The position numbers and the translations under genes were made by a program. Of a stretch of 64,000 bases of DNA, positions 1-52,157 are shown in pieces. Source of the DNA: Halorarum halobium (lineage in GTDB: Archaea; Halobacteriota; Halobacteria; Halobacteriales; Haloferacaceae); the NCBI RefSeq assembly GCF_032116555.1, contig NZ_CP134950.1, positions 62,001 to 126,000 of the forward strand. Reading direction: 5' to 3'. The notes beneath the pieces were generated by a model. That model saw only the letters and a list, made by a program, of their open reading frames with translations, was not told the origin of the DNA and made no database searches. Within the stretch, counting starts at the first letter, position 1; each line of letters starts with the position of its first letter.

Positions 1-595
1 AGGAGCGACGACAGCAGAACTTCAGATCCTCTTCAAATCCGGCGGGTCCTACGATACTGGTGAATACGAATTGGTGGCCGTCAAGGGCGAATCTACCGAC
101 TCGATGGCGATCGAACTCCGTCCGGAGATCAACGTTGTTGATGTCGAACCGGAACTTGACGAAGACGACCGGAACAGTACCGGCCGGCTATTCGTCACGG
201 TCGAGAATACGGGCTCTGGACCAACGTGGGTCTACAACATCGGGTTCCGAAACGCCCCCTATGCGAACGCCCCAGATGTAATTGAGGGCAATGGTGTCGT
301 TGATACGAAGTTTGAACGTCCTCAGGACCCCCAAGAAGAGTTCCTTCAGCCCAATGAGGAACAGAGATTCCTGAAAGGACGAGGGGTGCTGATCATCAGC
401 GATGACGATGCAGTTTCGTGTGAGGGAGGCACTGTCGAGATAACCATTGTCGTCCAAACCCCACACGAGGATATTGAACAGCCGATTCGCGCTGGCCTAT
501 CTGGTGGGTACCATATCGATGACCAGGCCGCCATTCAGCATCCCTGCAAGAACATCGACATTGTGCTACTGAGTGGAGGTGGTGACGATGCGTAG
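1..595 (+). CDS. Exported/lipoprotein-like hypothetical protein of the transfer operon (probably 5'-truncated by the window edge)
   Basis: Acidic beta-rich ORF; stop overlaps the ATG (588) of the next gene, which has a GGAGGTG SD. Confidence 0.6.
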   Translation, partial: GATTAELQILFKSGGSYDTGEYELVAVKGESTDSMAIELRPEINVVDVEPELDEDDRNSTGRLFVTVENTGSGPTWVYNIGFRNAPYANAPDVIEGNGVVDTKFERPQDPQEEFLQPNEEQRFLKGRGVLIISDDDAVSCEGGTVEITIVVQTPHEDIEQPIRAGLSGGYHIDDQAAIQHPCKNIDIVLLSGGGDDA

Positions 596-1946
596 TGTTC
601 GTCGACGAATGCTCTCCGCCGTCGCGGAACTCGTCGGGATCCTTGCTCTCGGATCAGTTCCGGTAGCTGCACAGAGTAACGGAGGGGTCGGTGGTGCCCT
701 CGGTGATATCATTATCGGGGCGATCCAGGAATTGCTCCGAATTCTGTTTAGCCCCATCCGGACTGTTATCGAGAATCACGGCGATGCGGTTCTGCGAACT
801 GTCGTAGGAACCCCGCATCCCGATTCTGTGTTCAGCGCTCCCTCGAACGGTGCCTGGCCCAGAATCTACGATTTCTATTGGGAGACGATGATCCCGCTCA
901 CCCTCACGCTGTATGGACTCTCTATCGGAATTGTGATTTTCCTCGAGTCGACGAGCCACCTGTTCAACGGCTACCACCGCTCAAAGCTCAAGAAGCGGGC
1001 CTTCTCAGGCCTGCTTGGTATCCTGTCATGGTGGTGGATCACAGCTCTCTCACTCCGATTTATGGACGCTTTGGCGGGATTCCTTGTGCCCTCCGTCTCG
1101 AATATCACGCTCTTCCAGACCTTGTCATTCTCGACGATGGGGGTCCTCGGCATAATCGTCGCCCTGTCGGCGAACTTCATCCTGTTCGTCCTCATCGGTC
1201 TGATCTATCTCGCTCGCCACCTCGCACTCTACCTGTTCGTCTTTCTGATGCCACTGCTCATTGTCTTCTGGATCCCTGGAGTCGGTCCCTTCACCTTGGT
1301 TTCGAAGTTCATGAAGAAGCTGGCCGGCTTCTACGTGCCGTTCTTGTTTATGACGGTTCCAGTAGCCATTCTGTTCCGCCTTGGTGACATCCTCGGGACG
1401 AGTTTCGGTGTCTCTGCCGGCGGGTTCGGAGCGTGGCTGACGGCACTCATCATCCCGCTGGCTGCGGTAGCGTCGCCGTTCATACTCTTCTGGCAGGCGG
1501 GAGCCCTGTTCTTCGTCGCCGATCGGGCGGCACGACACGTTTCCGCACAGAAGGCCCGGGGAAGGCTGTCGAGAGGCCGGGAACGGGTACAGTCGGCGAA
1601 GCAGGGCGGGAAGAACTTCGTGCGAGGAATGCGCGACGAGCCAGCCGTCAAGAGTGGCGGGCAGTACGTGTTGGGCTCCGGTGACTCTAGAGCGCACGCT
1701 ACCGGACAGCGGCTCAACACGACCGGGTCCCGTCTTCGCGACGCGATTACGGACGGCGTCGAAGACAGTGACCGAGGCGGTTCCGGTGGCGACGGTGATG
1801 GCTCTACCGCCAGTGCCGGCTCTCGTGAGGATGACGGCGACAACGAAGGAAGTGGAGGGACCGAGCGAGACGACGCTCTCCGCGATCCCCCGTCCCAGAG
1901 ACAGGAGCGGGAGTCGAGAGACGATCCGCCTCGATACATTCAGTAA
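588..1946 (+). CDS. VirB6/TrbL-like multi-pass membrane conjugation protein
   Basis: N-terminal signal-like segment, about 6-7 hydrophobic helices, Gly/Asp-rich disordered tail; directly upstream of PrgI-like and VirB4 genes. Confidence 0.7.
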   Translation: MRSVRRRMLSAVAELVGILALGSVPVAAQSNGGVGGALGDIIIGAIQELLRILFSPIRTVIENHGDAVLRTVVGTPHPDSVFSAPSNGAWPRIYDFYWETMIPLTLTLYGLSIGIVIFLESTSHLFNGYHRSKLKKRAFSGLLGILSWWWITALSLRFMDALAGFLVPSVSNITLFQTLSFSTMGVLGIIVALSANFILFVLIGLIYLARHLALYLFVFLMPLLIVFWIPGVGPFTLVSKFMKKLAGFYVPFLFMTVPVAILFRLGDILGTSFGVSAGGFGAWLTALIIPLAAVASPFILFWQAGALFFVADRAARHVSAQKARGRLSRGRERVQSAKQGGKNFVRGMRDEPAVKSGGQYVLGSGDSRAHATGQRLNTTGSRLRDAITDGVEDSDRGGSGGDGDGSTASAGSREDDGDNEGSGGTERDDALRDPPSQRQERESRDDPPRYIQ

Positions 1947-1949
1947 ACC

Positions 1950-2963
1950 ATGAGCTCAGCAACTGACCCCGAAAAACGAATTCCGAAGTCGCTCGGTACC
2001 GACACCCAATTCCTTGGGAAGTACTCGTTGACGGACCTCGCTGTCGCAGGAGTTCCCGGCGTACTGGTAGTCCTGGTGACGCAAGTCGTTATCCCACCGT
2101 CGCTCACCGTCCGTGGCATTCGGGTGTCTGCCCTCACAATCCCATTCGCAGCGATTGCGATCGCCTTTGGTGGGCTGTTCGTCTATCTCACGCCCGGCTA
2201 CACCAACAGTCTCGACTGGCTCGGCCTGTTCGTGAACTTCCACCGTAGCGAGACGGAGATTGCCCACGAGGAGGCGAAGGAATACACCCACGTCGAGCGC
2301 GTCTACCCGCGACACGACGCCATCGAGCGGACGGATCGAGCACTCGTCGGGGCGGTGCAGGTGTCGCCGCCGACGATGGCGCTCGCCACCGACGAGGAGT
2401 GGGGCCAGAAGACAGAAGCCTTCCAGGACTTCGTCAATACGACGGTCGAGTTCCCGATCCAGATCTATTCTACGACGCAGTCGTTCCCCGCCGACGAGTA
2501 CGTCGGGCGGTACGAAGACCGGTTGAGCGACCCGGACGTCAAATTCAACGAGAAACTCCAGGCACTCATCGAACACTACATCGACTGGTACGACCGGGAG
2601 CTGGCGCAGCGCCAAATGACCATTCGCGACCACTACGTCTTGATCCCGGTACGGTCCGAGGAGGTCCGGTACGAACGGGCCAGCATCCTCGAAAAGCTCG
2701 CTGGGATCCCCGTACTGGGAATCCCTATCCAGATTGTTACGGCGCCGCCGGAGGAGGAAGAACGAGCTGCGATACTAGAGGAATTGGACGAGCGGCGCCG
2801 GCGGGTCGAGCGCGGCCTCCGTGGTATCGAGGGATGTGACACGCGCCCCGTCGATGCGGCCGAACTCACCCGCCTCATCGCGGAATACTGGACCGGCACA
2901 GAAATCGAGTACGGCGACCCTGAACAGGTGCTCCGCACGTCCCCCGTCATCACCAAATCATGA
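1950..2963 (+). CDS. PrgI/VirB3-like membrane protein with soluble C-terminal domain
   Basis: Two N-terminal TM helices; ATGA overlap with virB4. Confidence 0.6.
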   Translation: MSSATDPEKRIPKSLGTDTQFLGKYSLTDLAVAGVPGVLVVLVTQVVIPPSLTVRGIRVSALTIPFAAIAIAFGGLFVYLTPGYTNSLDWLGLFVNFHRSETEIAHEEAKEYTHVERVYPRHDAIERTDRALVGAVQVSPPTMALATDEEWGQKTEAFQDFVNTTVEFPIQIYSTTQSFPADEYVGRYEDRLSDPDVKFNEKLQALIEHYIDWYDRELAQRQMTIRDHYVLIPVRSEEVRYERASILEKLAGIPVLGIPIQIVTAPPEEEERAAILEELDERRRRVERGLRGIEGCDTRPVDAAELTRLIAEYWTGTEIEYGDPEQVLRTSPVITKS

Positions 2964-5047
2964 TTCGAGACAAACTTCCCTTCATCGGCTCGGATAGTTC
3001 GGAAACTGACGACGAGACGACGGCAGACGAGGCACCCGATGACCAGAGAACGGACGATGCCGAACCACAGCTTACCGTGGACTACGAAGCCGACGGTGAG
3101 GCGGTCGACGGCATCCCCGAGATCCACCAGACCGTCGTCTCACCGTCGAGTATCGAGCGGACGCCCAGCGCCCTCCGGACTGACAACCAGTGGGCACAGA
3201 GTCTGTGGGTTGGCGAGTACCCCGATGCGCCGATGGATGGCTTCCTCGAAAAGCTGTACGCGGCCGCCGAAACCCAGCAGACGGATGTCAGCATTCACAT
3301 CGATCCTCGTGACACGCGAGAGACGCTGGATTCGCTGGAGAACAAGATCGAGGACCTCGAAGCAGATTATGAGTATCTGACCGAGAAGCACCGTGCGAGC
3401 GCGCGGGGCGTCGAAAAGGATCTCGAGGACCATCAGGAGATGTACGACGTCCTCCGGAACACGACGATGCAGGCGTTTGACGTCTCGATGTACCTCACGG
3501 TCCGGGGGAACGATCGCGAGAACATCGATACCGAGTCGGTGTCGACGACGGCCCGACAGGCCCCCGCGAATCTGACGCCGGTGACGCCCCGGTGGTCCCA
3601 GCTGAAGACCTTCACGTCGGCGAGCCCGATCGCTCTCGATCAGTTCAACGAGACGCTCGACAGCAAGACGCCGATGCTCGGCGGGGCTGTCGGCGCGATG
3701 TTTCCCTTTGTTTCCGGTGCGTTTGCGGAACCCGGCATCGAGTACGGGACGTACGCGCTGAATTCGAGCCCACTCATCCTCGACCGCTTCAAGCGGCAAA
3801 CCGGCTACTGTATGATGGTTATCGGCCGGCTCGGCGCGGGCAAATCCTTCGCGACGAAGCTCCGGCTCGTCCGGCGGGCGATGTTCGACGAGGATACGGT
3901 CGTTATTATGCTCGACCCGATGCGGGGGTTCGCCGGCGTCAACGAGGCGCTCGATGGCGAGCGCATCACGGTCGGTGGCCGGCGAGGGCTGAACCCGCTG
4001 GAGATCAAGCCGACGCCCGACCACGTCCTGCAGGAGGTCGACGACATCGACCCGTGGGGCGAGCAGATCAACTGGGTGATGACCTTCTTCGCGACGTTCT
4101 TCGAGCACGTCGCGGACCACCCGCTCGGCGAGCGCAACCAGACGCTCCGGCGGGCCGTCCAGGAAACCTACGAGAAGCGCGGGATCACGCGCGACCCGGA
4201 GACACACACCCGGGACTCGCCCACCATCCACGACGTCATCACGGTCCTCGAGGAGATGGTCGAAGACCCCGAGGAGTACGGGTACGTCACTGAGGGCGAG
4301 CAGGAAGCCGTCCAGTCCGATGCCCAGTCGCTGCTGAAGGACCTCCGCCCCTCATTCCGTGAGGGCGGTGAACTCGAGAACCTTGCTCGCCCCTCCGAGT
4401 TCGACCTCGACTCGAAGGTCATCTACCTCGATCTCCACCAGGAGGAGGGCACCCGTGGCCGAGCGGAGACCAGCCTGATGATGCAGGTGCTGTTCAACAG
4501 CGTCTACGAGCGGGTCAAGCAGACCGACAAGCGCGTCGTCTTCTGTATCGACGAGGCGCACTACCTGATGAACGACGCCGTCTCGCTGGACTTCCTGGAG
4601 ACGGCCGTCCGGCACAGCCGCCACTTCGATCTGAGCCTCGAATTCATCACGCAAACGGGGGGTGAATTCGCGCTGACGCCGGAGGCGCGAACCATCGCGA
4701 ACCTCTGTTCGCTGACTGTCCTCCACCGCGTCAACGAAGAGAAAGAGAAGATCGCCAAGTGGTTCGACCTCAGTGAGCGGCAGGTGAACTGGGTCACCTC
4801 CGCGAAGGCCGGCGAGGACGAGGACGGCTACTCGGAGGCGCTCGTCGGCATCGACCAGGAGGGCTGGTTCCCGCTCCGAATTCGAGCCAGCGACTACGAG
4901 GCTCACGTCATCGACGGCGGCGCTGCGGACGTGGCCGAGCTTGAGCCCGAATCGCGCGCCAGCGTGACGAGTCCGGATAGCCGATCCGCCGGCACGCGTG
5001 CCGATGGCGGTGATCCAACCAGCACTTCCTCTCAGGAGGATGACTGA
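2960..5047 (+). CDS. virB4: VirB4-family conjugation ATPase
   Basis: Walker A GRLGAGKS, LDPMRGF, LNPLEI, Walker B FCIDEAH, VRHSRH and ITQ motifs. Confidence 0.9.
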   Translation: MIRDKLPFIGSDSSETDDETTADEAPDDQRTDDAEPQLTVDYEADGEAVDGIPEIHQTVVSPSSIERTPSALRTDNQWAQSLWVGEYPDAPMDGFLEKLYAAAETQQTDVSIHIDPRDTRETLDSLENKIEDLEADYEYLTEKHRASARGVEKDLEDHQEMYDVLRNTTMQAFDVSMYLTVRGNDRENIDTESVSTTARQAPANLTPVTPRWSQLKTFTSASPIALDQFNETLDSKTPMLGGAVGAMFPFVSGAFAEPGIEYGTYALNSSPLILDRFKRQTGYCMMVIGRLGAGKSFATKLRLVRRAMFDEDTVVIMLDPMRGFAGVNEALDGERITVGGRRGLNPLEIKPTPDHVLQEVDDIDPWGEQINWVMTFFATFFEHVADHPLGERNQTLRRAVQETYEKRGITRDPETHTRDSPTIHDVITVLEEMVEDPEEYGYVTEGEQEAVQSDAQSLLKDLRPSFREGGELENLARPSEFDLDSKVIYLDLHQEEGTRGRAETSLMMQVLFNSVYERVKQTDKRVVFCIDEAHYLMNDAVSLDFLETAVRHSRHFDLSLEFITQTGGEFALTPEARTIANLCSLTVLHRVNEEKEKIAKWFDLSERQVNWVTSAKAGEDEDGYSEALVGIDQEGWFPLRIRASDYEAHVIDGGAADVAELEPESRASVTSPDSRSAGTRADGGDPTSTSSQEDD

Positions 5048-8000
5048 ACAGAACCCGTCAGAACCCTCGGCTGCGAACAGCGGTGACGAGTACATCCGGA
5101 TCACTCCCTCCCGAAGCGACCTCGCGCCCGAGACCGTCGTCCGTCAGCTGGCCGGCCTCCACGGCCTTGCCGCCGGCAACGACGGACTATTCCCTAATAT
5201 CGGTCCCTTCGGCGACGCGCCACCAGTGTTCGAGTTCCTTGCAGTGAGTGAGGGGGCAGACGAGCCGGTGGAGTTCTATTACGGGGTCGACCGCCGGTTG
5301 GATGCCTTCGAGGAACGCCTCCGGACGCTGTATCCTGCGACCGTCACGTTCGAGCGGGTCACCCTTGACTTGGAAGCGAAGCTACTCCCGTCGACAACAG
5401 ACCCGCCTCATGACCACAGTGCCGGGGGAGACAATGGCCACGAAATGAACCCCCGGACAGCTGAGGAATCCTCCGGAGACTCGCAACCGGACTCCGAGCC
5501 CGCGACCCTCTTTAATTCGACCGGCCATGGCCCGGTCGGTGACGGCGGAAACATGCTGTCGGAGAGCTCTACGTCGCAGGATGATGACGAGATCCCGTTC
5601 AAGGCCGATTCGAGTGACGAGTCCACAGTGACTGGTCTGGCCGACTCCGAACTCGATGACGAACACCAGCCGGCTGATACACCATCGAACGTCGACGAGA
5701 CGACCGCGCTCGGAATCACTTGGCACGGGCAGGCTACCCGGCGCGAGGACTGGATGACGACATTACCCCAATTCACGAATACGGAAGACGACGATGACGA
5801 CCACGCCCGGGCCCCGCTCGCGTCACTCATCGATCAGCTGACCCGCGCCGAACACCCGATCGCGTTCCAGGTGCTCTTCCAGCGGAAGCCGGACTGGACA
5901 CACGAGGCACGGGAACGCCAGCGGAAGCTCCGTGAAGGCGAAGACCGGGTCGTCGACTGGTTCTTCGGAGAACTCCTCGGAAACACGGAGAACGAACCAC
6001 AGAGTCCGTCGAACACCGGACGACAGCGTCGGTATCTCGACATCGGTGGGCGGGAACGAGTCGAGGCCATCGACGAGAAGGAGCCACAGCACACGTTCAC
6101 GGTGAATATGCGGGCGCTTTCGCTCGTGACTTCCAACCGACAGCGCGAGCGCGTCGACCACCGCCTCGACGATATTGGGTCCGTGTTCGACCACCTGAAC
6201 GGGGCCCACTATCGGCTCCAACCGAAGCGCGTCCGCCGCGGGCTCCGAAAGGGTCGGCGGGCTAAGAAACACGCCGACCGCGTCTCCAACGCCGGCCTGA
6301 CGACCAAAAGCGACTGGCGGAAGACCCGCCCCGATCTCGTCCTCGGGCCGGGTGAGTTGGCGAACTTCGTGGTCGTCCCGCCGGCGACCGAGCTCACGAC
6401 CGAGGGCGGGCGGGGGTCCGACGCCGAACCCGAGAGCCGGACGCCCCTACCGCTCCCGGCGCAGGACCACATGGATGCGTTCACGAACTCCGGAATGGCG
6501 ATCGGCCGCGGTCTCGGGGAGGACGGCACGCCGACGCCGGAGCCGATGCGGATTCCGCCGCATCTCCTCCCGTTCCACGTCGGCCGGTTCGCGAAGAGCG
6601 GCGCCGGCAAATCAGTCGCGCTGATCAACGACGCGCTCTCCCTGTACGACCAGACCACTGGCCCCGTGTTCCTGATCGACTCCAAGGGCGGGAACCTCCC
6701 CGAGAACTATATGCGGGCTCACGCGAAGCGCTTCGGCACCGACGACCTCGAGGAGAACGTCCTCCACTTCTCGGTGCCCGACATCCTGCCTGGCTTCGCG
6801 TTCTTCGACATCACGCCGGCGCTGGAGGATGGGGTCCGTCGCGTCGACGCGATCCAGGACAAGGCCGACCACTACGAGGAACTCATCAAGCTCGTGATGG
6901 GGCCAGAGCGCTACGAGGACGCCATCGCCTCGCCGACGCTCATCAAGTACCTCATCAAGGCGATGTACGACGAGGAGTACGGCCTCGAGAACGGGCACTT
7001 CCGGCAGGACGTGGACTACTTCACGCACGACCAGCTCGAACACGCAGTCACGCAGTTCCACGCCGCCGGCCCACCAGAACCGACACCCGAGGATGCGCCG
7101 CAGGCGAGTGACCCGCAGGTCGCGGAGAAACTGGAGCGACATCTGCGCTCAAACCCGGCGACGTTCTCGAACGTCGTGAGCGGCATCAGTAACCGGATGG
7201 ACTACATCACGCAGGACGCCCACCTCCGGCGAATCTTCAACAACACCGAGTCGCAGTTCGACTTCCGCGACCTCCTCGACGAGAACAAAGTGGTCATCTT
7301 CGATCTCGGCGATCTCCGCGACGAGGCCGCTCGCGTGATGACCGGCGTCATTCTGACGCAACTCTACGACGCTGTCAAGCGTCGCGACGGGGACGAGCTG
7401 GCCCGCAAGCCGGACGACTACGTGGCGAACCTGCTCATCGACGAGGCGTCGTCCGTCGTCGTCTCGGATACGCTGACGACGCTGCTCGAAAAGGGGCGGG
7501 AGTTCCGGCTGTCCATCGAACTCGTGACGCAGTTCCCCGAACAGATGAAGGAAGCCGGCAACCGCGAGGTCTACCTGAACGTCCTGAACAACATCGGCAG
7601 TCCGCTCGTCGGGAAGATCGCCGTCGACGCCGACATCGCCGAGGCACTCGCACACGAGGCGATGGATCCCGTCGAGTTCAAGAATCGGATCAGTTCACTC
7701 CCGCGTGGTGAGTGGATCGCCCAGCTCCCGAGTCCTGAGTTCGGCGAAACCGGCCCTGACCCGTTCAGTATCGAACCCCTCTCAATTCCGCCCGGGCATC
7801 CCGATGGCGAGCAGCCACTGACCGGGGTGCAGGAAGAGCGGTTCCAAGACGCCCTGGAGGCTGTTCACGAGCATACCCGCGAGGAGTACGGTGTGGTCGG
7901 CGGGACGACCGTGGAGAGCCGTGACGCAGCGACTGACGTCGCTCTGGAAAACGCCGATGACCTGCCGTTGGAAGTCGCGATGGCCCGTGCGATCCGCTCC

Positions 8001-9407
8001 GTCCAGCTGTCGAACGATGTCCGTGAGACGAACGGCTGGGTGTCCGTCGAGGACGTCGACGAGGAACTACTCTCACGGATTGAGGAAGGCACCATCGAAG
8101 CACAGGGCTACGAGACGCTACCGGATGTGAGAAAGGCATCCTCGCTCATCGAGGTCGATCTCCCGGACGGGGCATCGTCGGTGCAGTGTCGGCTCACAGA
8201 CGAGGGTGAGCAGGCAGCAACGCCCGACACGTCGACGTCACCGACCGGCGGGGGCGAGCACCACGATGCAGTCCTCGAAACGGTCGAGCAGGCGCTCGCA
8301 GCGGCGGGATTCTCCGTGGAGGTCCTCGATCAGAACGGGGAGTCCCGCCCCGACGCCATCGCGACGTATTCGGACCTTGACTGGGAGCTCCAGGTCGAAG
8401 TCGAAACCACCACGCACGTCCGGCCGTCAAAGGTCCTCACGAACCTCCGGAAAGCCCAGGAACAGAAGCGAATCCCGCTATTCGTCGTCGCAGACCACGA
8501 CGATCAACCAGCCGCCGAGATCGCCGACAGGCTCGCGAAGATCCTCAGCGAGCCGCGAAATCAGCTCTCATCCGGGGAGACGCGGCTGTATACAATGAAT
8601 CACAACGTCACATTCAACGGCGGTGCGCGAGCCGCGGATGGGGTGACGGCCGTCCGACCGGCGACTGGCGGCAGTCGCCACACCCGCTGGTTCGAGCGGG
8701 ATGGGGCGTTCGTCCTCGAGGATAGTGCCGGGGACCAGCACGCCCAGGTCGACTCCTTCGACGCCGTGTCGAAAGATCAGTTCCCGGCGACGTACAGCTA
8801 CGACGCCGAGAGCGAGACATACACCGTCTTCAGGCCGGGAGAACTCCCCGAGTCCTACGAGTCCCGTGAGGCGTTCGAAGCGGAGTGGGTGCCTGTCAAG
8901 CGCCCGTTCGTGCCCAGTACCGACCTGCCCGTTCCGGACTACACGGAGCGCTCCTATGTGATCGCGACCATCGAGGGCGACCAGCCGCTCGAAATCCACG
9001 CGCCAACAACAGAGACGTCCACCGGAGTTCCGGCACTCGTAGATGCGGTCCAGGACGGACTCCATCCAGCAGGTGTGACCCCGACTGACTCGACCGATCC
9101 GGATTCCGATACGGAGGAGAATGACGAAGCGGACCCGTACGGCATTCAGGCATTCGTCCGGGGCCAACTCACCGAATCCGACGACGGGGTCGTCGCGGTC
9201 GCTGATGTCTACGATGCATACGAGCAGTATGCTGCGGCCGGAGAATATGACGTGAAGCCGAAAAACCGATTCACACAGGCGTTGCGCGACCACGCTCAGT
9301 TCGAGCGTGACAAGAAGTGGTTAGACGGACAGACGCGGCGCTGTTACGTCGGGATCGAGCTGCGTGACGACGGCGATGAGGAGGAATCGAGCGATGCCAG
9401 TGCGTAG
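5040..9407 (+). CDS. VirD4/TraD-like coupling ATPase fused to wHTH + PD-(D/E)xK nuclease and a C-terminal D5-primase-type winged helix
   Basis: Walker A AKSGAGKS, IDSKGG, Walker B LLIDEA, GREFR, TQFP; C-terminal CRLTDEG...EHH...RPD-x14-EVE; terminal VADVYDAYEQY...F..AL...YVGIEL; SD-like GGAGG at the ATG 5040 overlapping the virB4 stop. Confidence 0.8.
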   Translation: MTEQNPSEPSAANSGDEYIRITPSRSDLAPETVVRQLAGLHGLAAGNDGLFPNIGPFGDAPPVFEFLAVSEGADEPVEFYYGVDRRLDAFEERLRTLYPATVTFERVTLDLEAKLLPSTTDPPHDHSAGGDNGHEMNPRTAEESSGDSQPDSEPATLFNSTGHGPVGDGGNMLSESSTSQDDDEIPFKADSSDESTVTGLADSELDDEHQPADTPSNVDETTALGITWHGQATRREDWMTTLPQFTNTEDDDDDHARAPLASLIDQLTRAEHPIAFQVLFQRKPDWTHEARERQRKLREGEDRVVDWFFGELLGNTENEPQSPSNTGRQRRYLDIGGRERVEAIDEKEPQHTFTVNMRALSLVTSNRQRERVDHRLDDIGSVFDHLNGAHYRLQPKRVRRGLRKGRRAKKHADRVSNAGLTTKSDWRKTRPDLVLGPGELANFVVVPPATELTTEGGRGSDAEPESRTPLPLPAQDHMDAFTNSGMAIGRGLGEDGTPTPEPMRIPPHLLPFHVGRFAKSGAGKSVALINDALSLYDQTTGPVFLIDSKGGNLPENYMRAHAKRFGTDDLEENVLHFSVPDILPGFAFFDITPALEDGVRRVDAIQDKADHYEELIKLVMGPERYEDAIASPTLIKYLIKAMYDEEYGLENGHFRQDVDYFTHDQLEHAVTQFHAAGPPEPTPEDAPQASDPQVAEKLERHLRSNPATFSNVVSGISNRMDYITQDAHLRRIFNNTESQFDFRDLLDENKVVIFDLGDLRDEAARVMTGVILTQLYDAVKRRDGDELARKPDDYVANLLIDEASSVVVSDTLTTLLEKGREFRLSIELVTQFPEQMKEAGNREVYLNVLNNIGSPLVGKIAVDADIAEALAHEAMDPVEFKNRISSLPRGEWIAQLPSPEFGETGPDPFSIEPLSIPPGHPDGEQPLTGVQEERFQDALEAVHEHTREEYGVVGGTTVESRDAATDVALENADDLPLEVAMARAIRSVQLSNDVRETNGWVSVEDVDEELLSRIEEGTIEAQGYETLPDVRKASSLIEVDLPDGASSVQCRLTDEGEQAATPDTSTSPTGGGEHHDAVLETVEQALAAAGFSVEVLDQNGESRPDAIATYSDLDWELQVEVETTTHVRPSKVLTNLRKAQEQKRIPLFVVADHDDQPAAEIADRLAKILSEPRNQLSSGETRLYTMNHNVTFNGGARAADGVTAVRPATGGSRHTRWFERDGAFVLEDSAGDQHAQVDSFDAVSKDQFPATYSYDAESETYTVFRPGELPESYESREAFEAEWVPVKRPFVPSTDLPVPDYTERSYVIATIEGDQPLEIHAPTTETSTGVPALVDAVQDGLHPAGVTPTDSTDPDSDTEENDEADPYGIQAFVRGQLTESDDGVVAVADVYDAYEQYAAAGEYDVKPKNRFTQALRDHAQFERDKKWLDGQTRRCYVGIELRDDGDEEESSDASA

Positions 9408-9446: not shown

Positions 9447-11471
9447 ATGACGCTCTCCGAATCAGCCATCCACAATCACTACCGTCGCGCCAAGCCCGTC
9501 TACGAGGCGCTGGCGACCGTCAAAGACTATCCTACGATTGGACTGAACGACTTTGTCGGGTGGTACATCAAGCGCGACCACGACGACGTCGAGGCGATCA
9601 AGGCCGGGTATCCGCAGCGCGGGCGGGTTGCCCGCCTGGATAGTGACTACGGCGAGATTCACAACCGCCTCGAACGGACCCTCTATGCGGTCACCACCTA
9701 CAAGACACCAACCGCCTTCCAGCGGTGGGAACCCTGTCGCTACGACGAGTCTGAGGGGACGACCGTCTGGCAGGATGAGCCTCCCACCCCTGGGTATGCC
9801 GACCTCCGGGCGGTCCCCGCCTGGGGCGACATCGACCTCGCCGACGACATCAAACCGCACCGTGGCGACCTCGATGCCGAGACGCAGTCGCTCGTCGAGC
9901 GTACGCTCGACGCCTACATCGAGGAGTATGCGACGCTCTACGGCACGCGGGACGCGGTGTATGCGTTGGACTCCGTCGGGGGTGCGTACGTCTTCGGGGC
10001 CCCAGAGGCCACGCTCCCGATTGCGGACCACTTCAGCGACGATCCGGATGCGCTCGAACGGGTGTTTGATGAGTTCCTCGACCGCTCGAACGCGTGGCTC
10101 CAGGAGGGAGAAGCCCGCGTGAACGAGGGCGTCGACGGCGCCGGCGACGTAATTCAGCCCGACTGGGTGAACAACAAGAATCGGCAGTACAAGCCGCCGC
10201 TGTCGGTTCACGCCGATCATGATGCCGTCGTCACGCCCCTCGCGACCGACGACGTCCGCTACGAACTCCGTCCGTTCGAGGCCGTCGACGATGCACTCAT
10301 CGAGCAGGCGGTCAGCTGGGCCGACGAGTTCACACGGGTTGAGCACACGGACTGCGTCGACTCACTGATCGCGACGCTCTGGCCGGATCTGTACGAGGAC
10401 CACGACGGGTGGCGGGCAACGCTTGAGGCGTGGGTCGAGGCGGAGCGCGAGCGGGAACGGGAGCGACAGCGACAGCGTGAGGCAGCGCTCCAACGACGCG
10501 AAGAGCGCCTGGCAGAACTCGACGGTGCCCTCGAAGGCCGACCTATTACGCCGTTCAAAGAGGACGTCTACGAGGCCGTTGAGAACGTCGATATCACCGA
10601 GATCGCCCGCCACTACGCGAGCGATGCCTACGATACGGATCCGAACCAGCCACGTCCCCAGTTCGACCCGTGCTGGCGTCACAGCGAGAGCGGGCAGTCC
10701 TGTTTCGTCGACGAGCAGGCCAACACCTTCGGCGATTCGAAGGTGAACGCCGGTGGCGGGCCGGCGAAACTGATAGCGCTCGCGACGGGGATTCTCTCCG
10801 ACGCCGATACAGACCTTGACGGGGAGGACTATTGGGTTGCCGTCGACGAACTGCGGAGCGCCGGCTTCGACATTCCAGTGTGGGTTCCAGAGGCCGGGGC
10901 AGACCGCGTCGACGGTGGGACCTACGACCAGATGCCCTTCTGGGCCGTTCGGAAAGCGGCTGTCGCACTCGATATTTGTCCCGAAGACGCGTTCGTCGAT
11001 CGCGAGGGAGAGGATGGGACCTACGAGGGATTCCCCGGGTACGAAACCTACAACGAAACGCTGGAAGCCATCGAAGAAGCGGGCCTGAACCACGGCCGAG
11101 AGCCAGTCACTCCCGAGGAGGACACAGCTGACGATGAATCGAAGTCACCCGCCGAATCTCCTCCGAGCGACGAGCGACCCGGTGACCTGGACCGGGCTCA
11201 TCTTCGCGAAAAGAACCGGCTGTTGACAGCGAAGGTCGAGCGTCTCGAGTCTGAACTGGAGGAGAGATCGGAGCGAATCGAGGATCTGGAAGCGGAGGTT
11301 GACCAGCTCCGAACGGAGCTCGCGACCGTCCGCTCCGAGCGTGACCGATTGGAGGCTGCTCTCGAAGAACGCGAATTCGAGCAGGAGGGAAGCGAAGAGA
11401 GAAAAACGGATGAAATCGATGAAAAATCATCCATTGACAAGGTGAGACAGCTTGTTTCATTTGACCGGTAG
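9447..11471 (+). CDS. Archaeo-eukaryotic primase (prim-pol)-like protein with degenerate Zn-finger-like domain and C-terminal coiled coil
   Basis: WGDIDLAD (DxD motif I), DSVGGAYVF (motif II-like), RQYKPPLSVH; heptad-rich C-terminus. Confidence 0.65.
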   Translation: MTLSESAIHNHYRRAKPVYEALATVKDYPTIGLNDFVGWYIKRDHDDVEAIKAGYPQRGRVARLDSDYGEIHNRLERTLYAVTTYKTPTAFQRWEPCRYDESEGTTVWQDEPPTPGYADLRAVPAWGDIDLADDIKPHRGDLDAETQSLVERTLDAYIEEYATLYGTRDAVYALDSVGGAYVFGAPEATLPIADHFSDDPDALERVFDEFLDRSNAWLQEGEARVNEGVDGAGDVIQPDWVNNKNRQYKPPLSVHADHDAVVTPLATDDVRYELRPFEAVDDALIEQAVSWADEFTRVEHTDCVDSLIATLWPDLYEDHDGWRATLEAWVEAERERERERQRQREAALQRREERLAELDGALEGRPITPFKEDVYEAVENVDITEIARHYASDAYDTDPNQPRPQFDPCWRHSESGQSCFVDEQANTFGDSKVNAGGGPAKLIALATGILSDADTDLDGEDYWVAVDELRSAGFDIPVWVPEAGADRVDGGTYDQMPFWAVRKAAVALDICPEDAFVDREGEDGTYEGFPGYETYNETLEAIEEAGLNHGREPVTPEEDTADDESKSPAESPPSDERPGDLDRAHLREKNRLLTAKVERLESELEERSERIEDLEAEVDQLRTELATVRSERDRLEAALEEREFEQEGSEERKTDEIDEKSSIDKVRQLVSFDR

Positions 11472-11484
11472 AAGAGAAAGAGCA

Positions 11485-12204
11485 CTATTTGCATGATGCG
11501 CGAACCGTGTATTCGGTCCGGAGTCCGTCTTCAGTATCGAAGTTCGCGAACACTGTTCCTCGTGGGAGGTTAATAAGCCGTCCAACATTGTAGAGGTCCA
11601 TACCTGAGGGGACAGCGTTGACCGCGAACATAATGGCTGCAGTTGCCGATATGAGACCGTCCGTCATCCACATCAAGCCACCACAGATCAGGCTTAGACA
11701 GACGAAAGGAGCGGCCAACATGAGGATATTTTCCCAGCGCTGGATGCCTTGAGTGTAGGCAACGACACTCGGGCTAGGAACACCGTAGAACGATGTCCAT
11801 TCGAATGAAGGATTGAGACCACGGAAGTAGCCAGTCACGTAATGAATCCCCTCATGAATTGCGATAATCGCAATAGATGAGGCGATTATCCAGCCACACA
11901 ATCCGCACAGTACTAGCGCGATATACGCGAACGGATGGTTCGACAGTCCGCTCTGTCCGAGAGCCTCCGCCCAACCTGTTAGCACCATCGTTCCCGAATC
12001 CAACGGTTGTTTGATTAGAGCCACTACAGGCGGAATAAGTAGAATAGCGATGCCGAGCCCCCAGCGCTCGTCACTCGTGTAGATTTTCGGTGGACTATAG
12101 CCTGTAGGAGGCCATCCATCTGGGTTCGACTCGTCCACCCCGGTTGTCGATATCGTTGCAATCACACTAGAACGACCTCCCATAATTAACCGTCCAAGAG
12201 GCAA
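11485..12204 (-). CDS. Membrane zincin metalloprotease (DUF3267-like)
   Basis: HEGIH in a TM helix, LAAPF and N...S..D motifs; lower GC. Confidence 0.7.
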   Translation of the reverse strand: MPLGRLIMGGRSSVIATISTTGVDESNPDGWPPTGYSPPKIYTSDERWGLGIAILLIPPVVALIKQPLDSGTMVLTGWAEALGQSGLSNHPFAYIALVLCGLCGWIIASSIAIIAIHEGIHYVTGYFRGLNPSFEWTSFYGVPSPSVVAYTQGIQRWENILMLAAPFVCLSLICGGLMWMTDGLISATAAIMFAVNAVPSGMDLYNVGRLINLPRGTVFANFDTEDGLRTEYTVRASCK

Positions 12205-12472
12205 GAATCCACAAACCGAGGACGATGTTTATTAGGAAAATTAGAACGTTCCATCCTGTAATTGGTGGAATCCACAACGGTAGAAGTGTTTCAATATAGA
12301 CTTCTACGACGACCGGAAGCATCTCCGTTCGCTGAGGTACACTACTGAAGACATCCAACCAGACGAGAAGAAGCTGGCCGGCTGTTGTGATGCCACCAGC
12401 AATCCCATATGCGTAGAGTGCCTGTCGGCTGAATAGACTGCCCAAGAAATAATTGACCGTTCGGGTTCTCAT
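12167..12472 (-). CDS. Small membrane protein
   Basis: Two hydrophobic segments in ORF 12167..12568; start uncertain (MRTRTV). Confidence 0.4.
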   Translation of the reverse strand: MRTRTVNYFLGSLFSRQALYAYGIAGGITTAGQLLLVWLDVFSSVPQRTEMLPVVVEVYIETLLPLWIPPITGWNVLIFLINIVLGLWILASWTVNYGRSF

Positions 12473-12686
12473 AGTTCCCTCCACATAGCCTCGAGTGTTT
12501 TGACGCCGGTCGGCCAAGCAGTCGTGTTCCTGAACATCGACATCGCAAGAGAAGTGTGGGAGAAACATATAAATGGGGGAAGTTTAAACTGAATTATGAT
12601 TTGCAGAGGGGTCTGCATATTTACGTTTCCGACGGTAGGTTCCTTGCATAGTGGCCTGCACAACCCCCTGCCCAAGTTCATAACAC

Positions 12687-13285
12687 ATGAGCGATCAATT
12701 AGACGAGTTTCAAACCGAATACGACCGGGCTGATCAAGATACAAAACGAGCGATTGGTGAATATCTATATCGACGCCCAGCACAGTGGGTCGCCAAGCAA
12801 GAGATCGCTGAGGTGTTCGAGATCGACCCGAGTGTTGCTGGTCGGCATATTGATGACTTCTATGAAGATGGATTCGTGGTCACAAGCACGGACAGAAACA
12901 CGCTCAATGGGACGGTCGAGGTGCCGGAGGGATTCGATATTGGTTACGAGAATTAGTTCCGCAGCAGCTTTGGATGGCAGGTAGCGAACTGCGCCCTCTA
13001 TTTACTTTAGAATCGCTTGGTGGGGCCTACGTGCCGACGTTACTGTTTGGTGTATTGGTCTTGATGGGGTTCATAACCGGTCTCTTCGCCGTACTCGTGG
13101 CCTATCTCCCAACAGACTCAGCACTAGGCGTGACAGTTACGGATTTGGTTTTTCTATCGGGGATTATTACAGTCATGGCATCAGTATTTCTACTTCTGGT
13201 GCCCTTTGCCAGATTGCTCGAAGTTGCCCTCGTGAAGGCTTGGAACTGGGGGGTAGTTCTGGCGAAAAATGAAAGTCAGGATTAA
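12687..13285 (+). pseudogene. Frameshifted winged-HTH + two-TM membrane regulator
   Basis: HTH (QEIAEVFEIDPSVAGRHIDDF) in one frame; the frame of the 12974 membrane ORF is open back to about 12866 (GQKHAQWDGRG...), so a shift near 12890 joins them. Confidence 0.55.
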
Positions 13286-13664
13286 TGGGGATCAGAGTTC
13301 CCAGACACCAGAGTCAAGATCCACATGACACCAGCCAAGGGACAGACTCATTCTGCACTACGAAACCACCTGACGGCAGCACTAGACAGCACTTGGCAGA
13401 CCAGTATGTTTCCAGTCAGCAGATCGAACCTGTGTCAGGTACTACCGTCTTGCGATTTTACGGAGAATTTAGCCACTAGACAGCAGGAAAATCAACCGAT
13501 ATATGGTGGGGGTGGCCGCCCAAAGTTGCGTTCGCGGCCACCTGGGCCGAGGTGCCAGGCCGCAGGCCAAGCGAGAGTAGGCTGCCACCCAGACGATGGC
13601 GTTGGGGCGTGGAGGGTGAGGGAGCAGGTCGACATCGTGCCTAAGAATTGATGACTGTGGTGAC

Positions 13665-23980: not shown

Positions 23981-24004
23981 ATTATCCCCTCAATGGGTGA
24001 GGGG
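23981..24004 (+). promoter_or_regulatory. Hairpin upstream element before tfb
   Basis: ATTAT CCCCTCA ATGGG TGAGGGG. Confidence 0.55.
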
Positions 24005-24044
24005 CTCGCCGTATCGGCGGTTTTCCCAAACAGCGGTGAGAACA

Positions 24045-24965
24045 ATGGCAACCAGAGACATCTACGAGACTGGATTCGACGAAGACGCCCAGACAGACTC
24101 GAATACCAACCAATGTCCCGAGTGCGATGGATACGTCATCACGAACGTCAAGGAAACGGTCTGCGAGGACTGTGGCCTCGTCATCGAAGAGCAACGTCTC
24201 GATCACGGGCCGGAGTGGCGAGCGTACGATGAGGACGAGCGGGAACGGACGGGTGCTCCGCTGACGGCAGCGCGGCACGACCGAGGCCTCTCGACCGAGA
24301 TCGGCCACGGAACCGATGCACACGGGAATGAACTCTCTGGGCAGAAACGCCGGCGGCTGGCCCGGATGCGACGTGAACAGACCCGTGGTCGCTGGCAGTC
24401 CAAAGCGGAACGGAATCTGGCACACGGGTTGGGCGAGGTGCGCCGGCTAGCGAGTGCGCTCGAGCTCTCCGAGTCGCTTCGCGACCAGGCGTGCCAGCTC
24501 TTCCGGAGCGCCCAGAACGAGGATCTGCTTCGTGGCAGATCCATCGAAGCCATCGGCGCAGCGAGCATCTATGGTGCCTGCCGGTGTAACCAACACCCGC
24601 TCCTCCTCGAGGATGTCGTCGACGCCGCCCGAGTCGAGTCCACTCGTGTCACCAACGCCTACCGAATACTGAATCGCGAATTGGAGCTGCCGACACCACC
24701 AATGCGCCCGACGTCGTTCATTCCGCGCCTGATCTCGGAGCTGGAGTTGGACCACGACATTCGCCGACGCGCGAACGAACTCGCAGAACGCGCCGAGGGG
24801 ACAGCTCTCATGAACGGCTGTCAGCCATCAGGCATCGCGGCCGCCTGCGTCTATCTGGCCGCCCAGCAGCAGGGCGCGTGGATCACCCAATCCACCGTTG
24901 CGTCGGCAGCGGAGGTGTCAGTCGTGACGCTTCGTAGCCGGCGGGACGAACTCCAAGCGATCTGA
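24045..24965 (+). CDS. tfb: Transcription initiation factor IIB
   Basis: CPECD...CEDCG Zn ribbon, GPEWRAY B-reader, HDRGLST, ERNL, LRGRS and cyclin repeats. Confidence 0.95.
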   Translation: MATRDIYETGFDEDAQTDSNTNQCPECDGYVITNVKETVCEDCGLVIEEQRLDHGPEWRAYDEDERERTGAPLTAARHDRGLSTEIGHGTDAHGNELSGQKRRRLARMRREQTRGRWQSKAERNLAHGLGEVRRLASALELSESLRDQACQLFRSAQNEDLLRGRSIEAIGAASIYGACRCNQHPLLLEDVVDAARVESTRVTNAYRILNRELELPTPPMRPTSFIPRLISELELDHDIRRRANELAERAEGTALMNGCQPSGIAAACVYLAAQQQGAWITQSTVASAAEVSVVTLRSRRDELQAI

Positions 24966-39073: not shown

Positions 39074-39204
39074 TGGAGAGGCTTCGACTGTCGCGAGCCA
39101 CCCACCAGCTGCTCGAACGCGGGGTCGAGGCACTCGAGAAAATCGGTCGCGAACTGGAACGGTACAACGATCGGCAAGAGCAGACTGACGGCACTGACTC
39201 GTGA
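39073..39204 (+). CDS. 43-aa microprotein (MERLRLSRATHQLLERGVEALEKIGRELERYNDRQEQTDGTDS)
   Basis: TGATG coupling upstream and GTGA overlap downstream. Confidence 0.6.
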   Translation: MERLRLSRATHQLLERGVEALEKIGRELERYNDRQEQTDGTDS

Positions 39205-39866
39205 CTCAGACACGTTCTCCCGGCCAGCGGCGGAGTACCGGGTTCCAGTACACGCGCACTCCCGAGGGGTGCTCGTGTCCCATTCATCGCGACGGCCAGC
39301 CGGTCACGGCGCCGCTCGGGTTGCGGTTCGCAGAGCGCGTCCATATCGAATCGATCCCGCGGCACGTCGCCGGCGCGATCTACGAAGCCCATCATTCCTA
39401 TATGGACAGTGTTCCCCGGACGAACCTCGTTCATCACGGGCTCTGTTACCAGGACCAGCTACTGGGTGCGATTACGTGGCGCTATCCGCTGATTCGCTCG
39501 CTGGAGTACGACGGGACGCGATACGAGGGTGACGAGATCGTCGAGGCAGCACGGATCTGCATCGGCGTCGACTTCCCGAACCTCGCCTCTGCTGCCCTCG
39601 CCCGGTCGATGGAACGGTTCGTGCGTCGGCACGGCCGGCGGCGAGGCGTTCGCCTTCTGCTGACGTTCGTGCGAGCTGACTTCGATGGCTCGATGATCAA
39701 AGCGCTCAGAGACAAGGGCTGGCACTATGCCGGAAAAACGGAGCCCGGACAGGCAGGTAACCGACCCGACAAGCAAATCCGAGAGCGGCCAAAGTGGCGG
39801 TTCCTCTGTGAAGTTCCTGATGAGTCTGAGCGGGAACAGTCCTCACTCGGACGGTGGGCTCCGTGA
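39201..39866 (+). CDS. Mom-like GNAT-fold DNA-modifying protein
   Basis: HHSY...G..Y...LLGAI...EAARI...NLAS..L...LLTFV...G...KA...GW...GKT...KWRF pattern of the Mu Mom family. Confidence 0.6.
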   Translation: MTQTRSPGQRRSTGFQYTRTPEGCSCPIHRDGQPVTAPLGLRFAERVHIESIPRHVAGAIYEAHHSYMDSVPRTNLVHHGLCYQDQLLGAITWRYPLIRSLEYDGTRYEGDEIVEAARICIGVDFPNLASAALARSMERFVRRHGRRRGVRLLLTFVRADFDGSMIKALRDKGWHYAGKTEPGQAGNRPDKQIRERPKWRFLCEVPDESEREQSSLGRWAP

Positions 39867-42029: not shown

Positions 42030-42071
42030 TTAACCAACAATCGGAGTCAGCCAACACCTCGTGTTGGTTAA
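42030..42071. repeat. TTAACCAAC-N24-GTTGGTTAA site 3
   Basis: Arms 42030-42038 and 42063-42071. Confidence 0.9.
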
Positions 42072-42144
42072 CGGTGAGAGTACTCCGTTTTTCGGGCCCC
42101 TGAATGGGTGCGGGGCGACCAGCACCCCCCTCGCGAGTTCAGTC

Positions 42145-43146
42145 ATGTCCTTCGATTTGAGTCCAGACTCCAGCACGGCTAGCGACATCGATGCCGCCAG
42201 ACAAGCGGACCATGTGGCGTTCCTCCATCGAGTTCCATTCGTCGCTGATGCGTTGGCCCTCGGATTTCTTCCCGGGTTTCGAGAAGACTGTGGGTATCAG
42301 TCAGACCAGTACCTAAACCTCGAGATTCCTGTGGGGATGCTCGATAACGACTTCCGCAATCCCGACCTGGAACGCTTCGTCGATCGATTCTTCGAGCACG
42401 AGCCACAGGTCGGTGTCATCGGCGACATCTTCGAACCAGATGCCGTCGACGCCCACGTCGCTGCCGCTCGCGAAATCCGAGCGAGCTACCCCGAGGCCGA
42501 GCTCATCGTCGTTCCGAAGTCGCGGGCGGTGATCGACGCGATACCCAATACCCTCGTCCTCGGGTATTCACGGGGATACGCCGACCGCCTGGCCCACGAG
42601 TTCTCCGACCCAGCCGATTGGAGAGGGCGACGCGTCCACATCCTCGGCGGGAGTCCGCCCAAGCAGCTCAACGCCATTCGACAGCTGACCAGACCGACTC
42701 TCACGGACGAGCCACCAGCCGACATCGTCGGCGTCGACTGGAACGGGCTGCATCGCGGCGCACAGTTCGGCGAGTTCTGGACGGCCGACGGCTGGGACGA
42801 CAGCGGTCGCGACGCCGACCACGTCACTGTCCGAAAGACGGTGCGTCACAGCCTCGCCCGGGTCCGCGAGTTCTGGCAGCAACACGGAGTCTGGCCTGAA
42901 TCGACACCGCAAGACGAGGGGCTGACCGTCGAGTACGAGGGTCCGAGTCCTGCCGATCTCGAGGACGCCGCCTGTACCGAGTGCGGGACGAACGTCTGGC
43001 GAACTCGCCGCGGCCCGTACGTCGCCGAATACGATACCGGCGCAATCTGTGGATACTGCAGTTACGAGTGCTACTTCAGCCACCGTCATCGAAACAACCT
43101 GGAGGAGATCGCCGGTGAGCAGAGCGTCTACCTCCCGCCGGCGTGA
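42145..43146 (+). CDS. DUF6610-like protein, possible TGT/DpdA-related barrel, with C-terminal zinc finger
   Basis: MLDND, VHILGGSP, VGVDWN; CTECG...CSYEC; hairpin element 42087-42116. Confidence 0.6.
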   Translation: MSFDLSPDSSTASDIDAARQADHVAFLHRVPFVADALALGFLPGFREDCGYQSDQYLNLEIPVGMLDNDFRNPDLERFVDRFFEHEPQVGVIGDIFEPDAVDAHVAAAREIRASYPEAELIVVPKSRAVIDAIPNTLVLGYSRGYADRLAHEFSDPADWRGRRVHILGGSPPKQLNAIRQLTRPTLTDEPPADIVGVDWNGLHRGAQFGEFWTADGWDDSGRDADHVTVRKTVRHSLARVREFWQQHGVWPESTPQDEGLTVEYEGPSPADLEDAACTECGTNVWRTRRGPYVAEYDTGAICGYCSYECYFSHRHRNNLEEIAGEQSVYLPPA

Positions 43147-45003: not shown

Positions 45004-45205
45004 AGCATTCGATTTGATTCTTGAGTATATGACTGCGGTGTTGTGAAATCACGCTCAACACCAGAACAACGGCTACGTCTCCATCTCTAATCGAATCCCT
45101 GCTAGCTATTCAGTCGCCCCATTGAGCAACCGCCGATGTGTTTTTTGGCCCCCGAAGGGTGCGGGGCGCTCATCCGGACGTGAGCGTCGCCTGAATTGAG
45201 TGATA

Positions 45206-51647: not shown

Positions 51648-52157
51648 CCCCCCGGAGTGTGAATGGGACCCGTCAGTCCGACACCCCTCGGTGTGAATGG
51701 GCAGCCACCCTCCTCAACACGGCGTTCCATTTCGTCATTGGAAGACGAGGCAAAGCGGTGCCAGCGAAACGGTTTGGCGGATATCCCACCCCCACACCCC
51801 TCAGTGTGAATGGTCCCACCACGTGGGGCACCACGATTAAGCTGCTCCTAATAGCGGAACCCGACCAGCGCGGACGCCCCTCCGCCTCCGCGCTGGCGCG
51901 TCGGCTTCGGCACAAGTGCCTTGCCTTTAAACAGGATACTACTCGGAGGACTGTTTAGACTCGTGTGTATTAAAATTATCTATTACTGCGGTGCGACACA
52001 CTAGCCAACCACTGCAAACAGCCAATTTTACCGTATTACCCGCTCTACGGGTTGTTTCAACCTCACGAGACTGCTAACGGCTCTCCAACGACACCAGCGT
52101 CATCTAAACAGCTGCCATCCCCTATGCCATACCATTCACACCGAGGGGTGGGGGTGT
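51648..52157. other. Putative replication origin: ORB-like repeats flanking an AT-rich unwinding element
   Basis: CCATTCACAC(T/C)..GGGG repeats at 51648-51666, 51681-51700, 51793-51813 (minus) and 52132-52157 (plus); AT-rich 51925-52040. Confidence 0.7.

Follow-up and report, generated by a model that had tools for sequence, protein, structure and literature searches.

A nuclease domain within the coupling protein of a haloarchaeal plasmid as a putative built-in nickase with a candidate cis site

Which protein cuts the plasmid before it is transferred between archaeal cells? Two reviews from 2025 describe the relaxase of archaeal conjugation as unknown, in the parts available (PMC12282955; PMC12857230), and the accessible text of three other papers calls archaeal relaxases unknown or undetected (PMC9905601, PMC3548315, PMC6563490). 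We considered this question on a 64,000-nucleotide (nt) stretch of Halorarum halobium DNA (contig NZ_CP134950.1, positions 62,001 to 126,000; hereafter the window), which encodes a coupling ATPase of 1455 amino acids (aa). A sequence-only reading of the window had proposed that this protein contains a hidden relaxase, on the grounds that its VirD4-like ATPase is followed by a winged-helix-like segment ending in CRLTDEG, then by EHH and RPD-x14-EVE. Translation and a structural model bore out this order of elements. We propose, at a probability of about 55%, that the ATPase carries a putative built-in, non-piloting nickase.

The coupling-protein gene may start with an ATG at 5040, giving 1455 aa, or with a GTG at 4998, giving 1469 aa, and ends at 9407; positions 7980-8561 on the plus strand form a stop-free reading frame. 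The protein and its domains are as follows.

5040..9407, plus strand: coupling protein with fused nuclease, 1455 aa (open reading frame, translation, Pfam)
6489..7889, plus strand: VirD4-like ATPase domain, residues about 484-950 (PF02534, PF01935, PF12696)
7962..8225, plus strand: winged helix-turn-helix, residues about 975-1062, ending in CRLTDEG (structural search)
8226..8555, plus strand: PD-(D/E)XK-fold nuclease domain, residues about 1063-1172, with H1075, D1105, E1120 and E1122 (structural search, conservation)
8562..8939, plus strand: beta-rich domain, inserted ahead of the nuclease fold's final strand (AlphaFold model; predicted local distance difference test, pLDDT, 93)
9153..9353, plus strand: C-terminal D5-like winged helix, residues 1372-1438 (PF03288)

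The motifs fall at residues 1050-1056 (CRLTDEG, nt 8187-8207) and 1073-1075 (EHH), and RPD-x14-EVE supplies D1105, E1120 and E1122 (nt 8352-8405). An AlphaFold model of residues 971-1322, built with 14 sequences (pLDDT 83), places a winged helix before a helix-strand-strand-strand-helix-strand core whose first helix begins at the histidine. In this model D1105 precedes the second strand (model residues 136-139), E1120 lies on the third (146-151) and E1122 just past it. Structural search with model residues 3-93 returned winged helices at Z 9.3-7.9 (root-mean-square deviation, rmsd, 2.7-3.8; 75-86 residues aligned). Neighbours of the nuclease part were AF1548 (Z 8.8, rmsd 3.2, 100 aligned), PaqCI (Z 8.7, 3.9, 124), NucS (Z 8.1, 3.3, 98) and Hjc (Z 7.2, 3.1, 94), Z values that the search tool's own note rates as middling. 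Foldseek with the winged-helix/nuclease model gave nothing at E ≤ 0.001, the best match being FokI at E 0.002. The core fold is common to Mrr, AF1548, NucS, Hjc, PaqCI, FokI and the window domain (Z 7-9), whereas the latter differs from stand-alone PD-(D/E)XK nucleases by a glutamate in place of the lysine and by its fusion to a conjugation ATPase. Taken jointly, modelled fold, motif placement and conservation assign the domain to the PD-(D/E)XK superfamily, the fold that had been predicted from the letters.

Searches of Pfam and NCBIfam matched the domain to no nuclease or relaxase family, and the nuclease profile, searched against PDB sequences, gave no meaningful match; a B12-binding hit (E 3e-4) was discarded as a generic alpha/beta match. 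Its Atlas neighbours, which serve as a lead only, were unnamed archaeal clusters at 0.90-0.91 and, at 0.82, a Replic_Relax cluster (11% of members). The fold of the beta-rich domain was left unassigned, since its best structural Z was 3.7 and Foldseek returned nothing at E ≤ 0.001; among its Tudor/SH3-like matches, the TraI translocation signal scored a weak Z of 3.4-3.5, indistinguishable from background. The C-terminal winged helix, scanned as a fragment, matched PF03288 at E 7e-5 (23.6 bits against a cut-off of 21.4) and accounts for the label 'primase-like DNA-binding domain'. This second winged helix and the beta-rich insert had escaped the sequence-only reading, as had the primase-like gene and the conserved non-coding site described below.

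Like bacterial VirD4, TrwB, TraD and TraG, the ATPase part is of the P-loop type, has Walker A and B motifs and is encoded in an operon with VirB4 and VirB6. Its PF02534 match (E 3.3e-4, 20.1 bits) equals the cut-off, and relatives passed the type IV coupling protein profiles PF10412 and PF12696. Walker A (residues 518-525, nt 6591-6614) and Walker B (797-803, nt 7428-7448) are both intact and common to the homologues. Unlike bacterial type IV coupling proteins, the window protein has no membrane anchor (no transmembrane segment was found; top 19-residue hydropathy 1.2, no segment above 1.6) and has a long C-terminal tail lying outside the bacterial hits. An N-terminal membrane anchor is usual, not universal, in VirD4-like coupling proteins. 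As expected of such proteins, VirB4 and VirB6 are encoded alongside: the coupling-protein gene is the last of an operon that begins with the following three genes.

573..1946, plus strand: VirB6/TrbL-like membrane protein, 457 aa (PF19590 TrbL_3, E 6e-14; hydrophobic segments)
1950..2963, plus strand: conserved membrane-anchored tra protein, 337 aa (NF041427 TrsD, E 5.5e-5, under cut-off)
2960..5047, plus strand: VirB4-like ATPase, 695 aa (NF045975, E 3e-51, and NF045971, E 8e-46, both under cut-off; PF19044)

The 337-aa protein is kept in 16/16 related loci and is fused to VirB4 in some relatives.

Conservation singles out the putative active site. H1075, D1105, E1120 and E1122 are invariant in 76/76 homologues; since these were found with this same region, what is informative is how the four residues stand out against the columns around them. 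When a profile was built from 23 diverse domains, 464 clusters matched it at E ≤ 0.001, of which we analysed the best 150 (50% identity representatives). Among these, D1105 was kept in 149, E1120 in 150 and E1122 in 149, upholding the expected conservation of the acidic residues, and the histidine ahead of PD in 148/148. The triad columns alone exceeded a 60% acidic consensus, the runners-up reaching 82/137 and 74/136.

Fusion to the coupling ATPase was found in 107 of the 109 representatives having at least 350 residues upstream, the other 41 being too short to judge. Judged from these proteins, the fusion is ancient and nearly obligatory. The region matched in 132/301 genomes of the class, and the profile in 35/401 genomes of the phylum, one non-halophile family included; scanning genome contigs with the single sequence had found only 10 close relatives. 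Eighteen of 20 divergent loci encode ATPase and nuclease and two the nuclease alone, and those of the 20 that were scanned sit in VirB2/VirB6/VirB4 operons.

Several variant forms accompany the typical one. In L047, L048, L052, L053, L054 and L078 (626-759 aa) the nuclease adjoins the ATPase without an intervening winged helix, and the C-terminus is a cysteine-rich tail; L049-L051 end instead in a winged-helix-like segment. ATPase-less nuclease proteins of 730-794 aa are encoded at L055:8181-10370, L056:2649-5018, L073:8584-10899 and L074:8658-11039. In all four the downstream neighbour is a distant paralogue, barely or not matched by the nuclease profile, and the two genes form a putative active/inactive pair. 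One non-halophile genome (G343) has two distinct coupling-nuclease genes about 10 kb apart (L071:8614-10374 and L072:7225-10050).

If the coupling protein cuts the plasmid, a separate relaxase need not be encoded. PF03432, PF08751, PF03389, PF01076, PF07514 and PF02486 gave no match at E ≤ 0.1 in six frames of the whole genome (99.9% complete); control genomes yielded at least one over-threshold hit for each of these six families (HUH, MOBH, MOBT). The lack of a canonical relaxase, first remarked for the window, was in this way extended to the replicon, none of seven relaxase Pfam families exceeding its cut-off in the genome in a search that left out MOBM, MOBB and MOBL. A hit to the seventh, PF13814 (E 0.0074), was rejected as it contains one internal stop and covers the helix-turn-helix part only, and PF13814 was not over cut-off in any of 301 genomes of the phylum. 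Among plasmids matching the region at E ≤ 1, 84/85 were typed as non-mobilizable.

The plasmid encodes two tyrosine recombinases, the family that gave rise to the MOBM relaxases (described as related in PMC12857230). Cutting might then fall to such a recombinase, to a host nuclease or to another protein, and the fused domain might be catalytically dead or a metal-binding DNA-recognition module. We regard this as very improbable: exactly three acidic residues are near-perfectly kept in the 150 representatives and in 87 divergent thermophile-type proteins, and paralogues without the triad motifs do exist and look very different. Two further points bear on the search for a separate enzyme. MOB-suite typed pNOB8, pING1 and pKEF9 with a relaxase, 'MOB_Unknown', and some pING plasmids have hypothetical relaxase open reading frames, yet pSOG1 and 2 transfer without them, according to the part of PMC4390865 available.

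The proposal had placed the domain with the MOBC relaxases or Replic_Relax proteins, and we compared it with both. MOBC enzymes (TraX of pAD1, MobC of CloDF13) share with the window protein the succession of winged helix, histidine, PD and ExE, in matching register, and in both families the histidine stands 15 residues ahead of a conserved glycine. The comparison set was a CloDF13-type MobC alignment, with TraX itself left out and two frameshift-derived rows dropped; since mobC is frameshifted in the CloDF13 record, an intact natural relative was used. Profile matching to this alignment gave 72% with the 23-sequence profile and 93.6/93.3% with the 150-sequence profile, with His, PD and ExE in register, and reversed-alignment controls stayed below 1%. 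When the winged helix was included, MOBC aligned over 137 columns, in which the wing, His, PD and ExE all kept their register. The MOBC triad is spaced as D-x(6-17)-E-x-E. The D-to-ExE spacing is 14 in the window protein and within 6-17 in 60/150 relatives, the other 90 having an insertion. MOBC genes adjoin the coupling-protein gene, the two overlapping end to start in a CloDF13-like plasmid, whereas the window domain sits inside the coupling ATPase.

The likeness to MOBC stood, and membership of either family did not. PF13814 had no hit on the window protein at E ≤ 10 and none in the 23 alignment members; NF041423 left the window protein unmatched and reached E 0.0045 in one relative (L071), at 16 bits against a cut-off of 200. 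The usual MOBC form is a stand-alone protein of about 240 aa, whereas the window family has a motif of its own past ExE, P-x-K-x-L-x-N, and extra beta-rich and D5-like domains. An essential tyrosine follows the triad in TraX (Y181; PMC6736028). Y172 of MobC, invariant in the MobC alignment, aligns with a lysine, and neither the 23-domain alignment nor the 150 representatives contain an invariant tyrosine. By these comparisons MOBC is the nearest of the relaxase families tested and common descent is plausible, while the scores under family cut-offs, the lack of a conserved tyrosine and the fused rather than stand-alone form place the domain outside MOBC.

The missing tyrosine is the first of several observations that weigh against a nickase. 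On the nuclease core the 150-sequence profile matched Mrr at 79/89%, near the MOBC score; the winged-helix-plus-nuclease profile matched MOBC at 89.7% in one direction and at 2.8% in the reverse. In 17/118 fused representatives the stretch ahead of the nuclease is too short for a winged helix, and the four ATPase-less loci have a nuclease and no pump. Transfer of this plasmid family, cutting activity, strand specificity and the nick site are themselves putative. The missing tyrosine and the close Mrr score would also fit a nuclease that serves transfer in some other way, by making a double-strand break, degrading the untransferred strand or resolving branched DNA at the pump. Nucleases coupled to translocases are familiar from HerA-NurA and RecB/AddAB-type enzymes, and type IIS enzymes, NucS and Hjc are among the top structural neighbours. 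Moreover, Sulfolobus plasmids have been suggested to transfer double-stranded DNA (PMC6563490). We nevertheless consider such a role rather unlikely. The triad is ExE as in MOBC and not the (D/E)xK of Hjc and Mrr, the Hjc profile matched at only 5/27%, and a linked, element-specific repeat site favours sequence-specific action. With the winged helix included, the Mrr match was 8/32%.

The same tail occurs on plasmids of thermophilic archaea. The 587-aa relative L071 aligns over 85-97% of its residues with the VirD4 proteins of pT33-3 and Sulfolobales plasmids, whereas bacterial hits, among the matches listed (60 of 163), end at residue 365, the end of the ATPase. Plasmid records covered over more than 80% of this query numbered 8/163, all archaeal. 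The TraG/VirD4 proteins of these plasmids (pNOB8, 1025 aa; pING1, pARN3, pMGB1, pAH1, pTC; pT33-3, 1370 aa) have the same order of ATPase, winged helix and PD..ExE, and the winged helix, PD and EIES are present in all nine plasmid proteins (pT33-3 and eight Sulfolobales). The haloarchaeal profile matched 8/8 Sulfolobales proteins (independent E-values 6.5e-6 to 0.014, set of 14), and pT33-3 is 44% identical to pNOB8 in the tail region. Matched as a set against the 150-sequence haloarchaeal profile, the nine tails gave 92.9/94.7%, with reversed controls below 1%. In 87 more thermophile-type homologues D, E and E are invariant, and the ATPase is present in 84. The plasmid TraG/VirD4 proteins are annotated as ATPases only in the literature examined, and the VirD4 gene of pT33-3 is required for transfer (PMC12857230).

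Here too some results speak against a common nickase. The haloarchaeal profile gave no direct hit on pT33-3, and the Sulfolobales/pT33-3 set had no direct match to MOBC (0.6/1.1%). The histidine before PD is absent from the Sulfolobales and pT33-3 proteins, in which a conserved histidine follows ExE instead, and the window's beta-rich and D5-like domains have no match there. The breadth of the family also bears on whether the nuclease could be toxic or defence cargo, cleaved off or delivered by the secretion system. PD-(D/E)XK domains are common as toxins, and the plasmid is rich in defence genes. We find a cargo most improbable all the same: across haloarchaea and Sulfolobales a single nuclease family occupies a single internal position, without any sign of cargo exchange, and is embedded among further conserved domains.

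A nickase would need a site on the DNA, and a candidate for the origin of transfer (oriT) lies downstream of the coupling gene.

9447..11471, plus strand: gene for a 674-aa primase-like protein, immediately downstream of the coupling-protein gene (Atlas look-alikes)
13303..13486, no strand assigned: four degenerate 9-nt repeats at 13303, 13384, 13414 and 13478, the last abutting the core (shuffle test)
13488..13528, plus strand: conserved non-coding core, candidate oriT, or vegetative origin (oriV) or priming site (gap-free alignment to the main-clade motif)

Comparison of distant loci with the window by blastn revealed no conserved non-coding site; the motif emerged from gap-to-gap alignment of the distant loci. 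It reads AAAACCAACTAGTATAGA, followed by a G run, in 14/14 main-clade loci that have a gap past the coupling gene, and is flanked by a 5-bp inverted repeat with compensatory changes in 2/5 pairs. Repeats ahead of it differ between elements, their count being reached in 0-7 of 200 shuffles. Searched over the 301 genomes, which include the 14 source loci, the motif pattern gave 85 hits in 63 genomes and a control pattern 0. Of these hits, 73 lie on the same strand, 578-839 bp downstream of a nuclease match, counting the 105 listed nuclease matches and leaving out 52 weaker ones. Rfam contains no family matched by the motif (3 loci).

In the window's clade a variant of the core at 13488-13515 aligns without gaps with the main-clade motif, and the inverted repeat is not preserved. 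A search for this variant gave one hit per genome in the 7 genomes whose coupling proteins are the closest, 4 of which were used to build the pattern, and 0 in the other 294. The main-clade weight matrix scores the window site weakly, ranking it only third in the genome (12.8 bits) and best on the plasmid. The four 9-nt repeats were matched in 0/40 shuffles, and likewise in 7/7 relatives, while a test for exact 7-mer repeats in the window found nothing (184/200 shuffles). A low-G+C insertion (11485-13285, 53%), absent in L001 and L002, separates the primase gene from the repeat site and carries a zincin-like membrane protein and a small helix-turn-helix gene.

A comparable arrangement exists in Sulfolobales plasmids, where a repeat lies 452-725 bp past the TraG gene in 7/9 plasmids; PMC4390865 assigns it to a putative replication origin. 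A scan for the haloarchaeal core in Sulfolobales, pT33-3 and other thermophile-type stretches gave no hit, and the only string in common with the Sulfolobus repeat, of 7 nt, is too short to argue for homology. In the non-halophile genome G343, a near match to the Sulfolobus repeat lies 51 bp past the first coupling-nuclease gene. TraX binds direct repeats separate from its nick site (PMC12857230), and the haloarchaeal site resembles this oriT layout of repeats apart from a conserved core, a layout that iteron origins share.

The site could be an oriT, an oriV or the place at which the primase-like protein starts its synthesis, and the published naming of the Sulfolobus region counts on the side of replication. 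So do the 12 motif hits without a nuclease match: 8 stand ahead of a primase gene or remnant, with remains of a coupling gene upstream in 3, and 4 have neither. As 8/12 of these orphans stay with the primase, it may be the primase to which the motif belongs. The four sites with neither gene (L146, two in L151, and L154) are possible oriT-only hitchhikers or remnants. The primase-like gene follows the coupling gene in 16/16 loci, 15 detected by phmmer and the 16th by profile, and its product has look-alikes in the Atlas at 0.91-0.93, as a lead only, labelled Zn_ribbon_DnaG and 'putative DNA primase/helicase'. On this evidence the nuclease and winged helices might act as an initiator or terminator in vegetative replication and maintenance, an idea to which the D5-like helix and the ATPase-less forms also lend themselves. 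We hold it to be improbable. The plasmid contig already has two Cdc6/Orc genes and one PolB, and the near-obligatory ATPase fusion (107/109) extends to clades with a fused nuclease that show no primase match beside the coupling gene. In addition, the window-clade core lies after the primase gene and is therefore not its promoter.

We thus favour a nickase within the coupling ATPase. Domain order, fold, conservation of the acidic triad, operon context and linkage to the cis site were established directly, and the steps of binding, cutting, strand choice and transfer are inferred from them. The winged helices would bind the element-specific repeats, and the D..ExE centre, with a divalent metal, would hydrolyse a plasmid strand in or close to the conserved core. 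Cleavage by MOBC enzymes likewise appears to be hydrolytic; in the available text on TraX and CloDF13 MobC, a covalent intermediate was not seen (PMC12857230, PMC6736028). The fused ATPase would then pump the cut strand into the VirB4/VirB6 channel, and the adjacent primase would synthesise the complementary strand. An enzyme that forms no covalent bond cannot pilot DNA, and fusion to the pump would therefore achieve the coupling for which bacteria use a piloting relaxase. By analogy, the protein would act like a MOBC relaxase without belonging to that family.

The window lies on contig C2 (158,620 bp, 58% G+C, against 68% for C1), which reads as a haloarchaeal plasmid by its gene content (ParA, Cdc6/Orc, PolB, defence genes). 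Genes for TFIIB, Cdc6/Orc and a family B polymerase lie at 23997-24965, 52157-53425 and 53753-55918 of the window; TFIIB genes have likewise been reported on thaumarchaeal conjugative elements (PMC6563490). A Mom-like protein (39201-39866), a DUF6610 protein (42061-43146) and an ArdC-like/M78 protein (45200-46132) possibly represent DNA-modification and anti-restriction genes in the transfer region. At 61937-63939 and L015:184-3650 is a CBASS-like operon with a SMODS cyclase, an E2-ThiF-JAB protein and a TIR-SAVED effector. A defence cluster on the same plasmid (L015:6143-17775, L016:27-2555, L016:10007-11728) comprises GmrSD, two Thoeris-like TIR genes, a PLD-SNF2 helicase, a fragmented Eco57I-like methylase and a SIR2 protein.

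In the literature searched, which excluded supplements and most subscription journals, we found no description of the ATPase-nuclease fusion or of the haloarchaeal motif. What appears to be new here is also the conserved non-coding site with element-specific repeats, a candidate oriT, downstream of the coupling-nuclease genes. The domain is real and conserved and, with its function putative, offers a direct handle on the question of the archaeal relaxase: three residues and one DNA site are named as targets for mutation, and the same domain is present in the transfer-essential VirD4 of pT33-3. A built-in nickase would explain why searches for a separate relaxase gene have failed and would show mechanistically how coupling can work when no pilot protein is covalently bound. 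More tentatively, at somewhat less than even odds, from haloarchaea to Thermococcales and Sulfolobales a single polypeptide may recognise, cut and pump the DNA, with the repeat-plus-core as the archaeal oriT, the Sulfolobus 'origin' as a site of the same kind and dozens of 'non-mobilizable' haloarchaeal plasmids self-transmissible. If the nickase is real, the domain would be a marker of conjugative elements, matched in 132/301 genomes of the class, and the site would provide an oriT for mobilisable haloarchaeal vectors.

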